Assembly (NCBI GenBank): GCA_943356775.1
Contig: CALRFU010000003.1
Span: 22,308 to 86,307, forward strand
Source of the DNA: Candidatus Nomurabacteria bacterium
GTDB taxonomy: Bacteria; Patescibacteriota; Minisyncoccia; Phycocordibacterales; UBA2100
Direction of reading: 5' to 3'
Length of the DNA stretch: 64,000 nucleotides
The notes under the pieces were generated by a model that was not told the DNA's origin, made no database searches, and was given only the letters and a program-made list of their open reading frames with translations. Position 1 is the first letter of the stretch. Every line of letters begins with the position of its first letter. Made by a program: the position numbers and the translations under genes. Positions 32,518 to 37,319 of the stretch are shown here, in pieces.

Positions 32518-33674
32518 AATGCTCAAACGATATCCGTGTTCGCGGCTAACTAGAAATATGAGGTGTAGCTCACATCCAGAAAGCACCAACACGGAATGCT
32601 CAAATTGAGATTCCGTTCATTGAAACGAAGAGCGATAAGAAAGATTCGAAAACAATGTACCCTACTACGCTCCTCTCGGAGCTTCGAAGGGCAATGCGCG
32701 ACTCTCACAATTCCTTTCGAGAGTTCTGTCGGCGGATTAGTACACCTCGGCTACACGCATTGCTGCGCTTCCACCTGGTGCCTATCAACGTGGTCATCTC
32801 CCACGAGCCTCAAACGATTTCTGATCTTGGAGTTGGTTTCCCGCTTAGATGCTTTCAGCGGTTATCCTTTCCCGACATAGCTACGGGGCGATGCCACTGG
32901 TGTGACAGCCCCCAGACCAGAGGTCAGTTCATTTCGGTCCTCTCGTACTAGAAACGAATCTCCTCAAAAATCAACGCCTGCAGCAGATTAAGACCAACCT
33001 GTCTCACGACGGTCTGAACCCAGCTCACGTACCTTTTTAAATGGCGAACAGCCATACCTTTGGGACCTTCTCCAGCCCCGGGATAAGATGAGCCGACATC
33101 GAGGTGCCGAACTTCGCCGTCGATTTGGACTCTTAGGCGAAACCAGCCTGTTATCCCCAGAGTAACTTTTATCCGTTAATCTTCGGCCGCATCTAATGCG
33201 GACCGTCGGTTCACTATGCTCCGCTTTCGCGCCTGCTTGTCATGTACGACTCACAGTCAAGCCGCCTTTTGCCATTACACTATCGGCACGGTTTCCATTC
33301 GCGCCTAGGCGACCATAATAGGCTCCTCCGTTACTTTTTAGGAGGACAGCGCCCCACCGAAACTGTCCATCAGGTACTGTCTCTCTTGGGTTTCTCCCAA
33401 GAGGTTAGAACATACAGAAACGTAGGATGGTATTGCACTGGCGACTCCACCACAACCGAGATCATGGCTTCAAAGTCTCCCATCTATGCTACGCAACGCA
33501 CCCGTATATTCAATACCAAATTACAGTAAAGCTTCTGGGGTCTTTTCGTCTTGCTGCAGGAAGGCGGCATCTTCACCGCCCTTGTATTTTCACCAAGCAA
33601 ATCCCCGAGACAGTTCCCAACTCATTATACCATTCGTGCGCGTCTGAACTTACCAGACAAGGAATTTCGCTAGT

Positions 33675-34446
33675 TGTCAATCCACACATCGCTGTGCGGA
33701 ACGAACTCTATCTTCAAACAAGCACCGCTTGTTTGTCTGACGTGTGGTTTCTGGGGATTCTCTTAAAGTCGTCAACGACGTCTTGTTTTTCGTATTTCCG
33801 CTTCCTTCCCTTTCCTTCGTTAAGTTTTTCTCGCAATTCAATGATTCTCATAAACCCCTTGCGAGCAAGATGCTCTCCGGAGTATACGATCATCGCAATT
33901 TGTTTGAACAGCGCGAAGTTTCTGGTTTTGGATTCGGATTGAAAAGGAAACCGCTCAAAGAACGGGAATACCTTTTCTACGAGTTCGACGTAATTTGTCA
34001 CCACAAAGTAATGGACTCCATCACTTCGTCTTTGTAACCTACCGCACTGCAAATGTTTTTGCAAAAGCAGAAGATTGGTGACATCTCGTTGGGCTACATT
34101 GAAGGTGAGAACTACCTGCCATTGGAGTTTGTGATCCGGTCTTTGGCGGAGAGAAACACTGAAGCTTCCCTCGCCATCACTGAATCCTGACAAATACCAA
34201 CCCAAACTTTGGGAATTGATTGGCGGTGTGTTCATACGTCCAATTATAGCACCTGATTTCAAGAGTCTTTCCTGCTGATTGTCCGCACTTCAAGATTGTT
34301 ACTGTCTTGCGACTAGTACTTGAAGATACTCGGATTTCCCAGCATATGGTCAGATGTTTAAAGACATTTTGCTTTCGCAAAATAGGCAGCGTTCATGAGG
34401 ATAACCGTCCCAGTCCTTCCGCCACCCTCGTATTGAGAGGGGCGAA
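33675..34446 (-). mobile_element. Group I intron B in 23S domain IV (about E. coli position 1931, between CCTAAGGT and AGCGAAATTCC), carrying a LAGLIDADG ORF
   Basis: Exon segments CGTCCTAAGGT (34447-34457) and TAGCGAAATTCC (33661-33672) flank the insert. Degenerate R/S-like elements sit near 33730-33790. Shares the 90-bp 5' element with intron A. Boundaries are good to about 5 nt. Confidence 0.65.
33714..34262 (-). CDS. LAGLIDADG homing endonuclease encoded in 23S intron B
   Basis: LGWYLSGFSDGEGSFSVSLRQRPD LAGLIDADG motif, 182 aa. Confidence 0.7.
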   Translation of the reverse strand: MKSGAIIGRMNTPPINSQSLGWYLSGFSDGEGSFSVSLRQRPDHKLQWQVVLTFNVAQRDVTNLLLLQKHLQCGRLQRRSDGVHYFVVTNYVELVEKVFPFFERFPFQSESKTRNFALFKQIAMIVYSGEHLARKGFMRIIELREKLNEGKGRKRKYEKQDVVDDFKRIPRNHTSDKQAVLV

Positions 34447-34460
34447 ACCTTAGGACGATT

Positions 34461-34913
34461 CTCCTTTGTTAATCTGCTCGCGAATTAACAGTAGCTACGA
34501 GCAACTCTCTATGTCGCCATAGAGGCCGGACTATATCATCTCTGCTTTTGCAGAGTCCGACGTATAGTCTCTGAGGATTCTTGTGAACTTCAGTGAAAAA
34601 ACTATGCCTGTTTGTCCGGGTACATTAAATGAGTAACCACTGCTGCGATTGCAAGCGCAGCAAACGATACCCACGAACCCCTCAAACCTAAGAAATAGGA
34701 AACAAGAAGTAATCCTGCGCCAACCGCTCCAAAAATGAGCGATTTCTTCCAGGTTATTTTCATGTTTCTACTCTAGCACACTTTTCTCAATGAAGTTCAC
34801 AAGTCTTTCCTGCTGATTGTCCGCACTTCAAGATTTTCACTGCCTTGCGGCTAGTACTTGAAGATACTCGGAGTTTCCAGCATTTGGTCGGATTTTATAA
34901 CTACAATCATCTT
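34461..34913 (-). mobile_element. Group I intron A in 23S (about E. coli position 1915-1917, after AACTAT), no intact endonuclease ORF
   Basis: Exon GCGATAACTAT ends at 34914. Exon resumes as AATCGTCCTAAGGT at 34460-34447. R element TCAGAGACTATACG and S element AGATGATATAGTCC are present (rc of 34506-34582). Only a 53-aa hydrophobic ORF lies inside. Confidence 0.6.
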
Positions 34914-37319
34914 ATAGTTATCGCCGACATTGACCGGGGCTTATGTAGCGCCAGCCTTCATTCTTGCGAACGAAGACCGACCACATTTGACCTTCCGGCA
35001 TTGGTCAGGCATCACCCCCTATACATCCTCTTACGAGTTCGCAGGGAGCTGTGTTTTTGGTAAACAGTTGGTTGGGAAATTTTAACTGCGGCCCTTCTTG
35101 CGAAGGGCGGACCTTATCCCGAAGTTACGGTCGCTTTTTTGCCGAGTTCCTTGGGGATCTCTCACTTGTTCGCCTTACTCTACTCGAGCTGAACACCTGT
35201 GTCGGTTTGCGGTACGGTCCGCGCATGTTTATGCTTAGAGGTTTTTCTTGGAAGCGCGCTCTCTTGAATCTGCTTCGGCCGAGGCCTCCACATTTCCACT
35301 TCGCTCGGACTATAGGAACCGGATTTACCTGGCTCCCATCCTCACGACATGAACCCAAAACCAATAATGGGCCCAAGATACAGCACTCCGTCCCCCCGTC
35401 GCAACATGCGCAGGTCATGGAATATTAACCATGTGTCCATCGCCTTCGGCATTCGCCATCGGCTTAGGCCCGACTAACCCTTCGATGATCTCCATTGCGA
35501 AGGAAACCTTGTTCTTTCGGCGTGCGAGAATCTCACTCGCATTGCGGTTACTCGTGCCAACATTTTCACTTCTGTACGCTCCAGCATGGGTCACCCCTTT
35601 GCCTTCATTGCAAACAGAACGCTCTCCTACCACTTCACTTTCCCGAAGGAAAGAAAAATCCGCATCTTCGGTATCACGCTTAGCCCCGATCATTTGTGGC
35701 GCAAGATCTCTAAGTGAGTGAGCTGTTACGCTTTCTTTGAATGGTGGCTGCTTCTAAGCCAACATCCTCACTGTCTCTGAAATCTTACCTCCTTATTTGC
35801 ACTTAGCGTAAATTTTGGGACCTTAGATGGCGATCTGGGCTGTTTCCCTTTTGACCAACGGAGCTTCGCCCCCGTAGTCTAACTGCCGCGCTATTACCTC
35901 TGGTATTCGGAGTTTGATAGAGGCAGTGGTCTTTCGACCTATCCGCTTCTTCCAGTGCTCTACCCCCAGAGGGAACACACGACGCAAGCCCGAAAGCTTT
36001 TTCGGAGAGAACCAGCTATTACAACGTTCGATAAGCTTTTCACTCCAACCCACAAGTCATCCCAGGATGTTGCACAATCCAAGGGTTCGGCCCTCCATCT
36101 CTATTTCTAGAAACTTCAGCCTGCTCATGGGTAGCTCACGTTGCTTCGGGTCTGATACAAACGACAAACGCGCTATTCACACTCGCTTTCGCTACGGCTC
36201 CATGCTTTGTCGCACTTAGCCAAGCCGTTTGCATCAACTCGTTGGCTCATTCTTCAATAGGCACGCTGTCGAGGACATTGCTGCCCTCTTCAACTCCTTG
36301 TAGACATGTGGTTTCAGTTCTATTTCACTCCCCTCACCGGGGTTCTTTTCACCTTTCCCTCACGGTACTTGTTCACTATCGATCTGAAGAAGTATGTAGC
36401 ATTACCGGTTAGTCCCGGCGAATTCACCCGAGCTATTCATGTCTCGAGCTACTCAAGAACTACAGCCATAGAGATGCTTTGATTTCGAGTACGGGGCTAT
36501 TACCCTCTGGGGCTCTGCTTCCCAGCAGATTCCTCTATCTAAGCATTTTTTTACTCTACCTATTGCTAGCGCTGTAGCCTTATAACCCCCATCCCCAAAA
36601 TCGACTCGCAAAATCTACTTTTGGTAAACTTGTGCGCTTCGATTTTGTGGCTGAGTTTGTGCTTTTCCCGTTTCGCTCGCCGCTACTAAGGGAATACCTA
36701 TTGGTCTCTTTTCCTCTCGGTACTGAAATGTTTTACTTCCCGAGGTCTGCTCTCTCAAACGTTTAAGTTGAGAGTTATCAAGGATTACTTGATAGGGTTG
36801 CCCCATTCGGAAATCTCCGGGTATAACGATTGCTTGGCATCTTACCGGAGCTTATCGCAGCTAAGCCGCGTCCTTCATCGCCTTCTTCAGTCTAGGCATC
36901 CACCACACGCCCTTACTCAGAACTCCCGCTAGGAATTCTAAGAACCGCGTATTGCACGCATCCCCTACAAGAGGGACACGTGACTTTGTTTTCTTGCCGC
37001 TTTTTTAGAAAGGAACGGCATCCTTTTTTGCTTTGTGTTTTTACAGCTACGTCTCATTCAGCAGAATGACCTACTGGGTTAAGACGCAGCATCCTGCATC
37101 TCACTTCGGTAGACTACACCGAAATAAGATTTTATTCTTCTTGTCCACCGTAGCCTTTCGACCACAGCGGATTTCTTTCTTTCTCGCTCTTCAATTTTCA
37201 ACGATCTACGTACAAGTCACGAAAAAAGCCGCTTGAAAGCGGCCTGGTCGCAGAGCTTGGGAGCTCGGCTACCTGTGCCACTTCGTGAAGCTTTTAAGCG
37301 ATAACATATACGTCGAAAG

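Follow-up and report, generated by a model that had tools for sequence, protein, structure and literature searches.

The 23S rRNA gene described here is interrupted by two neighbouring introns, which we call intron A and intron B, and lies in a 64,000-nt stretch of DNA (referred to in its full length as the window) from a Candidatus Nomurabacteria bacterium (assembly GCA_943356775.1, contig CALRFU010000003.1, positions 22,308 to 86,307). A complete bacterial large subunit (LSU) rRNA was identified on the minus strand with Rfam (RF02541, 2307.7 bits, model positions 1-2925), and in the alignment to this model the gene carries insertions of 454 and 781 nt, which adjoin AACUAU and stand ahead of AGCGAAAUUCC. 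The junctions were read directly on the minus strand: the upstream exon ends in ...GGCGAUAACUAU and is followed by intron A, a micro-exon and intron B, after which the downstream exon starts with AGCGAAAUUCC (Table 1). We take the insertion sites to be those after U1917 and U1931 of E. coli, with the numbering set by the loop of helix 69 (H69), UAACUAUAA, as 1911-1919. Both introns engage the micro-exon, in that its AAUC pairs with the guide of intron A (P10) and its AGGU pairs with the guide of intron B (P1); in addition, its GUCCU is complementary to an AGGAC kept in intron B. For the locus as a whole, we give a probability of about 0.7 to the reading that these are two group I introns of the family found in the Candidate Phyla Radiation (CPR), inserted at 23S positions 1917 and 1931, that intron A is canonical and has no endonuclease open reading frame (ORF), and that intron B carries an endonuclease gene of the 1917 lineage together with an altered binding pocket. 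Anatomy, homology, covariation and selection are read from the alignments, and splicing, the target of the endonuclease and co-mobility are inferred from them.

A preliminary description of this DNA had proposed twin group I introns 14 nt apart in a 23S gene at 32722-36920. The Rfam match, the two insertions and the direct reading of the junctions bear out the gene and its introns, and the micro-exon accounts for the spacing; the ends of the gene had to be moved outwards on both sides. The limits proposed for intron A agree to the nucleotide, whereas intron B, which had been placed at about 33675-34446, keeps its upstream end and is now extended to 33672 downstream. Of the two sites given, at about 1915 and 1931, the latter is correct and the former is replaced by the position after U1917. 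The two coding claims, that intron A has only a 53-amino-acid (53-aa) ORF and that intron B encodes a LAGLIDADG endonuclease, also proved right. The identical arrangement is present at 99-100% identity in contigs of several independent metagenome assemblies, and one contig of 125.8 kb is identical to the window; since it recurs at this level of identity in several samples, the twin-intron arrangement is not an assembly artefact. Fragmenting intervening sequences of 23S rRNA are characteristically simple extended stems at helix 25 or 45, which lack a ribozyme core and are removed without ligation. An RNase III-processed sequence of this type does not fit, as the site lies between H69 and H71 and both insertions contain a group I core.

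The host is a CPR (Patescibacteria) bacterium. Insertions in CPR rRNA genes are said to have been first noted by Brown et al. in 2015. Among species-representative genomes 24 related loci were found, all of them in metagenome-assembled genomes that are CPR or CPR-like (Kaiserbacteria, Vogelbacteria, Paceibacterota, Nomurabacteria and similar groups), and a search with the intron B protein returned hundreds of metagenome LAGLIDADG proteins, of which the few named ones belong to Candidatus Taylorbacteria and Vogelbacteria. In a survey of CPR 23S genes, insertions were found in 82%, about half of them group I-like, and LAGLIDADG_1 genes clustered at positions 1917, 1931, 1952, 2593, 2604 and 2657 (Tsurumaki et al., 2024, PMC11270868). 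Both introns of the window have the properties of such insertions, namely a 1917 or 1931 site, a CPR genome and a group I-like core, and the same twin arrangement occurs in at least eight other CPR assemblies. LAGLIDADG-bearing group I introns at both 23S 1917 and 1931 are thus on record for CPR, so that an arrangement of this kind was known before, is ordinary for these bacteria and in itself adds nothing beyond the catalogued CPR rRNA introns. Two further searches were set aside. A metagenome search with the exon-intron junction 14-mer TCCTAAGGTTTCGC matched at least 120 stretches, of which one (L136) passed the filter and was also a false match, and a search of viral contigs with a P7/P9 motif of the intron B type led to six related phage contigs, in which the match is a chance one inside a coding region.

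Intron A matches the group I intron model of Rfam over its full length (RF00028, 57.4 bits against a gathering score of 50, model positions 1-253). Its P1 has a U.G wobble at the splice site, its guide motif GATTGTAGTT is kept across the 1917 introns of the family alignment, its pocket pair (equivalent to 264:311 in Tetrahymena numbering) is G-C, and its last base is G. It is thus a canonical ribozyme without an endonuclease gene and, to judge by these features, would be expected to self-splice in the usual way. No remnant of an endonuclease was found in it (tblastn best E = 1.7). A perfect 12-bp P6 stem encloses an insert of ~200 nt, which holds the 53-aa ORF. This ORF has no homologue but itself among 5.8 billion proteins and gives a sub-threshold match only against Pfam; the P6 insert is absent from all related loci and from contig L150 (discussed below), and it has no match elsewhere in the window. 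With no homologue and with the insert missing from relatives, the ORF was rejected as a conserved gene and looks like a population-specific insertion. Two other loci (L145, 915-1850, and L146, 1174-1728) contain a third intron at about 1951/1952, between AGCGAAATTCCTTGTCTGGTAA and CTGG..., with a 46-aa hydrophobic ORF and a second LAGLIDADG gene. Since that intron also has such an ORF, small membrane-like ORFs recur in these introns, and they are mutually non-homologous.

The anatomy of intron B was derived by family alignment, and its structural interpretation draws on about nine sequences of one lineage and about 35 members of the wider family. The guide is found in all eight full-length members of the lineage, with P1 matched at 4 of 4 positions and P10 at 3-4 of 4, where the P10 strand is (C/U/A)GCU against AGCG. 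P3 of intron B is UCUGAC/GUCAGA, a compensated variant of the UCCGAC/GUCGGA of intron A; family-wide, P3 is paired in 230 of 234 cells and shows many compensatory pair types, and P4 and P6 were read from the sequence and the family alignment. In the 3' domain of the lineage (P8, P9 and P9.0; nine members) 98.9% of cells are paired and 14 of 21 pairs have changed on both sides, values that none of 500 shuffles reached, and slid controls were paired in 24-52% of cells. P9.0, which is stacked immediately on P7 in the manner of the Tetrahymena 'P7 extension' (PMC10020454), has three covarying forms: GUU/AAC, GGG(C)/(G)CCC and GGAC/GUCC. The terminal U stands directly 3' of P9.0 in every member of the lineage. 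The single other junction frame, in which G precedes the 5' splice site and a C that is already paired in P9.0 becomes the last base, appears less likely. The P9.1/P9.2 tail and the UAACA motif are missing. Because the guide, P8, P9 and the extended P9.0 are under structural selection and would together place the terminal U at the splice site, we infer that the RNA of intron B is still processed at U1931/A1932.

Table 1. Positions in the window of the 23S rRNA gene, its two introns and their parts, and the related intron in the 16S rRNA gene.
Feature	Position	Strand	Basis and remarks
23S rRNA gene, exons and two introns	32716..36928	-	RF02541
Intron A, group I, after U1917, 453 nt, no endonuclease gene, ends in ...AAAGGAG	34461..34913	-	RF00028
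Intron A guide, GAUU-GUAGUU	34899..34908	-	GUAGUU pairs with 5' exon AACUAU (P1); GAUU pairs with 3' exon AAUC (P10)
101-nt element, copy 1, in intron A: P3 5' strand, P4, P5, P6 5' strand	34796..34896	-	repeat search and RF00028 structure line
53-aa hydrophobic ORF in the P6-loop insert of intron A	34602..34763	-	ORF list
3' core of intron A (J6/7, P7, P3', P8, P7', P9)	34507..34582	-	common to the 16S intron; RF00028 and family alignments
Micro-exon, AAUCGUCCUAAGGU	34460..34447	-	14 nt; 23S positions 1918-1931; alignment and direct reading
Intron B, group I-type, after U1931, 775 nt, with endonuclease gene, ends in U	33672..34446	-	family alignment
Intron B guide, CGCU-GCCU	34384..34391	-	complementary to ligated junction AGGU/AGCG (P1 with U.G at U1931, and P10)
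101-nt element, copy 2, P3-P6 core of intron B	34258..34358	-	repeat search and family alignment
LAGLIDADG endonuclease gene, 173 aa from ATG at 34235; ORF list extends to TTG at 34262	33714..34235	-	PF00961
P7 5' strand of intron B, CAGAAACCA	33745..33753	-	equivalent of G264 is A at 33749
P7 3' strand and P9.0 5' strand of intron B, AGAGUUCGUU	33700..33709	-	equivalent of C311 is U at 33704; G313-U315 (33702-33700) in P9.0
AAC (P9.0 3' strand), then terminal U at 33672 (omega position)	33672..33675	-	junction reading and covariation
Related group I intron near the 16S 3' end, after AAGUCGU, 664 nt, ends in G	15628..16291	-	RF00028, 37.2 bits

The binding pocket of the Tetrahymena ribozyme, as resolved by cryo-electron microscopy, consists of the layers A263.C262-G312, omegaG.G264-C311, A261.A265-U310 and A306.C266-G309 (PMC10020454). 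When the family is aligned to it, the pocket pair 264:311 is G-C in all 31 canonical members tabulated, and it is A-U in the window and in 8 of 8 other members of the intron B lineage; all nine end in U, and none has a terminal G. Positions 261, 262:312, 263, 265:310, 266:309 and 306 of the lineage are unchanged, and only the central layer of the pocket is altered. The Tetrahymena numbering was mapped via the conserved R and S elements to the Tetrahymena sequence, and the mapping is consistent with the S-element alignment of Rfam. Across a protein divergence of up to about 20% the altered pocket positions are invariant, while compensated variation is seen in P8, P9 and P9.0, a pattern which argues that the altered active site is constrained and not decaying. 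Nearly all group I introns are held to depend on guanosine and to end in G. To our knowledge the binding-site pair has been changed only in the laboratory, and we know of no description of such a pocket and last base in natural group I introns. Engineered into the Tetrahymena ribozyme, G264A:C311U reportedly switches the preferred nucleoside to 2-aminopurine or adenosine, and exon ligation then requires that the terminal base be changed to match, in work ascribed to Michel et al. in 1989 and to Been and Perrotta in 1991.

On this evidence the intron B lineage could be a group I ribozyme in which nature has re-specified the pocket, with U.A-U in place of G.G-C; the terminal U would serve ligation, the first step might use uridine, uridine triphosphate or another non-guanosine cofactor, and a near-identical endonuclease in two introns 14 bp apart would reflect gene movement and the mobilisation of both. 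We hold this full version tentatively and think it more probably wrong than right. The change affects the central layer alone, on both strands and in all nine members, with three flanking layers intact. Likewise the terminal U, present in all nine, comes right after a covarying P9.0 of 3-4 bp and opposite a guide that matches the exon junction. In addition, G264:C311 is described as the one conserved P7 pair, and G264A alone is inactive (PMC2860135). Nevertheless, adenosine was reportedly the nucleoside favoured by the engineered A-U pocket, with A and not U required as the terminal base; the fit of a pyrimidine in the pocket would be different, and related introns combine a terminal A or C with a G-C pocket, so that base and pocket need not couple. 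As a chemical rationale only, the terminal U could in principle form a U.A-U triple on the Hoogsteen face of the A-U pair, in place of G.G-C. A conserved natural lineage does carry the laboratory-type pair change and a terminal base change, and keeps the other helices that position the splice site; if re-specification were true, it would be a natural lineage with altered cofactor specificity and a candidate for the natural exploration of other cofactors. As far as we could find, the combination of A-U pocket, terminal U, truncated 3' tail, extra 5' hairpin and 1917-clade endonuclease in the intron B lineage is new.

The endonuclease of intron B matches PF00961 (LAGLIDADG_1) with E = 4.6e-18 and 66.4 bits, against a cut-off of 23.1, and contains a single motif, GFSDGEGSF. 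Its size and its single motif with an acidic residue fit a homodimer, its nearest relatives in the Protein Data Bank (PDB) include I-SmaMI and I-OnuI-type enzymes, and the 3' end of its gene overlaps P6', P7, P3' and P8. The alleles of the window and of contig L150 differ by 30 synonymous and 0 non-synonymous changes, and by this measure the gene is under strong purifying selection. An extended -10-like box, TGCTATAAT (34236-34249, minus strand), stands 9 nt upstream of the endonuclease ATG and is found in the same place in loci L001-L011, in 1917- and 1931-borne versions alike. This box might drive a nearly leaderless mRNA that is independent of the rRNA transcript; it was not flagged by a promoter scan because it has no -35 element.

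Contig L150 (ERZ27280297 k141_1636100) covers window positions 28304-36914. Its exons and the downstream spacer are 100% identical to those of the window, intron B is 4.9% different, and the middle of intron A is replaced. Over the whole comparison, identity is 99-100% in the exons, the spacer and the genes downstream of 35897, and only 73-93% upstream. The contig may be a natural recombinant or else a chimera of metagenome assembly, and a separate short contig, with intron A as in the window, comes from the same sample. As L150 is possibly chimeric, the L149/L150 comparison was not taken to prove that introns have turned over recently.

In the tree built from 24 intron-borne enzymes, proteins of the intron B type intermingle with the 1917-borne enzymes of L005-L011 (86-92% identity), and the successive outgroups are also 1917-borne; to the 1931-borne enzymes of L012 and L024 the intron B endonuclease shows 27% identity. 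On sequence evidence, then, the endonuclease gene of intron B and the adjoining P3-P6 module derive from the 1917-intron lineage and not from the usual 1931 endonuclease family. Occupancy of the two sites is complementary: all 8 intron-B-type loci in which the 1917 site is visible carry an ORF-less 1917 intron there, and all 6 close relatives that have the gene in the 1917 intron and a readable 1931 site (L005, L006, L007, L008, L010 and L011) are empty at 1931. Since an ORF-less 1917 intron accompanies the gene of intron B in every case, joint homing of the pair as a unit is probable. In the model that we propose, the gene with its flanking P3-P6 module would have moved from a 1917 intron into a 1931 intron, likely by recombination through shared core sequences. 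The enzyme's target would still be the 1917 region, with its pseudo-palindrome formed by the H69 hairpin, and the ORF-less intron A would interrupt this target in the host's own gene and so protect the host allele. A break at the 1917 region would then lead to co-conversion, in which both introns are copied together because they lie 14 bp apart, and the pair would act as one homing unit. That the same endonuclease sits in one or the other of two introns 14 bp apart, and that occupancy is complementary, gives a simple and testable model, and this model could explain how ORF-less introns stay mobile and how endonuclease genes move between introns in CPR rRNA genes.

Alternatively, the endonuclease of intron B may have been retargeted to 1931, where it would mobilise intron B alone, with intron A as an unrelated resident that has lost its own gene. 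A few substitutions can shift the specificity of a LAGLIDADG enzyme, and the usual substrate of an intron-encoded endonuclease is the unoccupied form of the site at which its own intron is inserted. Endonucleases and introns usually fall into site-specific clades (PMC1995217). However, no residue of the LAGLIDADG domain separates 1931-borne from 1917-borne enzymes, the discriminating columns being confined to the C-terminal tail, which is encoded by P7, P3' and P8. Moreover, occupancy is strictly complementary, and typical 1931 endonucleases are only 27% identical to this one. We therefore regard retargeting as possible but doubtful, and continue with the joint homing of introns A and B from a break at the 1917 region.

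Other arrangements of these elements were seen in related loci. In L019 (2390-4190, a Parcubacteria 23S gene) at least four group I introns stand in series within ~60 exon bases, at 1917, at 1931 and at two sites further downstream; its 1931 intron ends in A, and the endonuclease of that intron branches with the 1917 clade at 56% identity. In L009 (497-1300, Kaiserbacteria) the 1917 intron breaks off in P9 and runs into 23S sequence around 2010 (GGGAACUGUCUCGG), with ~90 exon bases missing, as a result of either a deletion (pseudogene) or a misassembly. Locus L023 (102-1257), which is labelled Acidobacteriota, a label that may be a binning error, has the same intron family, with an endonuclease-bearing intron a few bases upstream of 1917 in the H69 loop and a 1931 intron that ends in C.

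Several observations weigh against our overall account of the locus. The A-U pocket pair and the terminal U are each the loss of a group I hallmark, and the distal P7 pairs 267:308 and 268:307 of intron B are mismatched (C.A and A.G), leaving P7 with four Watson-Crick pairs only. A terminal A is found in 9 of 26 1917 introns, and a terminal A and a terminal C in one 1931 intron each, all with a G-C pocket; because non-G ends occur with a normal pocket, the terminal base may simply be relaxed in this intron family. Against RF00028 intron B scores 20.5 bits, compared with the gathering score of 50 (E = 0.018), and over its 3' part only. With regard to homing, B-type and A-type introns may occur together through common descent and not through independent events, and a scan of the intron-less exon for pseudo-palindromes gave weak, tied optima after 1913, 1935 and 1900. 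The 1931 intron of Simkania negevensis is moreover a reported precedent for an intron at this site that is not spliced (title cited in PMC11270868). The low RF00028 score is attributable to the gene of ~520 nt in P6, which splits the core and makes the test unfavourable to this intron, and despite this score intron B aligns helix by helix with the family. The RF00028 and folding check suggested in the preliminary description was thus passed by intron A, and for intron B it failed at the gathering score and succeeded on the fold, in which the core helices are paired and covary in the family.

Some of these points would also suit an intron B that no longer splices, which would be either retained in the 23S rRNA or removed without ligation to leave a fragmented 23S, with the ribozyme as a decaying relic that carries an endonuclease gene. 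Such decay would account for the lost pocket pair and terminal G, the two distal P7 mismatches, the absent P9.1/P9.2 tail and UAACA motif and the score under the Rfam threshold, and the unspliced Simkania intron would be its counterpart. Yet the pairing of P3, P8, P9 and P9.0 has been kept by compensation (14 of 21 pairs, 0 of 500 shuffles), the guide is complementary to both exons in every member, and the altered pocket positions are invariant among members with proteins up to about 20% different, where a relic should drift. The insertion also lies between H69 and H71, at the subunit interface. We consider the loss of splicing unlikely, and return to the reading of intron B as an intron still processed at U1931/A1932.

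The similarity between introns A and B is concentrated in an element of 101 nt that is 89% identical between the two copies. In the RF00028 alignment of intron A, this repeat runs from the last part of the P3 5' strand through P4, P5 and the P4 return strand into the beginning of P6, and in the family alignments the block is near-invariant in all close relatives at both sites. A 40-nt core of it is found in an intron of the 16S rRNA gene (16134-16173, 78% identical to both copies), and that intron also shares two blocks of the 3' core with intron A (15639-15672 against 34507-34540, 91%; 15680-15715 against 34546-34581, 83%). The site of the 16S intron is presumably after U1498 in E. coli numbering, and its LAGLIDADG gene (16186..15671, minus strand; PF00961, 1.8e-16) encodes a protein with 31% identity to the intron B endonuclease. 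In its core, the 16S intron is of one family with introns A and B. The preliminary description had both introns opening with a shared 90-bp element; the element itself is confirmed and extended, while its position is not, as it begins ~17 nt into intron A and ~89 nt into intron B. The recurrence of the element's core in the 16S intron, the 3' core of 85 nt common to that intron and intron A, and the proposal that the element is conserved as RNA and not as protein have all held up, since it is P3-P4-P5-P6 of the ribozyme core; the repeat occurs in the 16S intron, indifferent to reading frame, because the P3-P6 core is near-invariant in this intron clade at any site.

The 79-nt P4-P6 core of intron A (AUGCUGG to GGAAAG) is 97.5% identical to that of the 1917 intron of L010, 96.2% to that of L011 and 92.4% to that of intron B. 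Because the core of intron A is closer to the 1917 introns of other genomes, the similarity of A and B reflects membership of one intron clade and not duplication. The origin of the pair by recent duplication or gene conversion in this genome, to which the 89% identity of copies 538 nt apart might point, is highly improbable, given these core identities, the differences between A and B in their 5' ends, 3' ends, guides and pockets, and the A-plus-B arrangement in eight other assemblies with endonucleases up to 13% different. Thus, of the two origins raised in the preliminary description, a local or recent intron duplication is not supported, in view of the closer cores of other genomes and the twin arrangement in at least eight other CPR assemblies, and homing between sites is supported in part, as an old event, in which the endonuclease and P3-P6 module of intron B came from the 1917 lineage, and not as an event in this genome.

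Elsewhere on the minus strand of the window, Rfam matches were obtained to the 5S rRNA (32409-32513) and to the small subunit (SSU) rRNA (16255-17711). The rRNA genes are unlinked and in an odd order along 7661-36928 of that strand, namely 23S-5S, ~15 kb of protein genes, 16S, and tRNA-Ile(GAU) a further 8 kb downstream. The SSU match stops at 16255, where the model is forced to end, and 16S sequence resumes past the intron with AACAAGGCACGG... Past helix 45 the 16S (window 15590-17711) reads GGAAUCAUUC and not the usual GGAUCACCUCC, with a CUCCUU motif ~25 nt further on. A perfect 25-nt direct repeat, AAAGCACCAACACGGAATGCTCAAA, is present at 32503-32527 and 32580-32604 with a spacing of 77 nt, and one of the copies overlaps the 5S gene at its 5' end. 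The repeat may have arisen by partial duplication of the 5S, or it may serve as a processing element.

Among known systems, Coxiella burnetii is said, in work ascribed to Raghavan et al. in 2007, to have two group I introns, Cbu.L1917 and Cbu.L1951, that flank a 34-nt exon, one ORF-less and one with a LAGLIDADG gene. Cbu.L1917 reportedly lacks a terminal G and ends in A; the non-G end there is an A in a 1917 intron, whereas here it is a U in a 1931 intron with an A-U pocket. The 23S L1931 intron of Simkania negevensis, in work ascribed to Everett et al. in 1999, contains a LAGLIDADG gene and is reportedly unspliced in mature rRNA. It shares with intron B the site, the type of gene and a bacterial host, but the covariation in intron B argues for continued selection on its fold. 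The engineered Tetrahymena ribozyme G264A:C311U, with or without G414A, has the same pair substitution as intron B and, reportedly, a terminal base change as well; it is a laboratory construct, however, which is said to prefer 2-aminopurine or adenosine and to need A rather than U as the compensating terminal base.

By our own reading of its numbering, we take 1917 and 1931 to be sites 23IS6 and 23IS7 of the CPR survey. The CPR insertions share with introns A and B the host group, the sites, the group I-like core and the single-domain LAGLIDADG_1 genes, and ORF-less and ORF-bearing forms coexist in them, with many insertions per gene; a CPR relative, I-ShaI, is active at its own site, 23IS7 of that paper (PMC11270868). 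Unlike our analysis, the survey by its own statement did not map exact splice junctions, and it is silent on the terminal base, the pocket and the sharing of an endonuclease clade between the two sites (PMC11270868). Synechococcus sp. C9, with introns at L1917, L1931 and L2593, likewise has 1917 and 1931 introns in one bacterial 23S gene, single-motif LAGLIDADG genes that extend from a peripheral loop into the core (P6 to P9) and a 1917 intron without P2 (Haugen et al., 2007, PMC1995217). In that gene every intron encodes an endonuclease of its own, and both the introns and the enzymes form site-specific clades, whereas in the window one of the two introns lacks an ORF and the gene borne by the 1931 intron is of the 1917 clade. 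A parallel to the proposed mobility is the collaborative or trans homing of phages, in which an ORF-less intron is served by a neighbouring endonuclease gene (PMC3984707; mobE and I-TevIII, PMC2790892). In both cases the endonuclease gene would lie outside the intron at the proposed target, the intron would protect the host allele and the two would be inherited jointly; in phages the helper gene is free-standing, and here it would act from inside a second intron 14 bp away.

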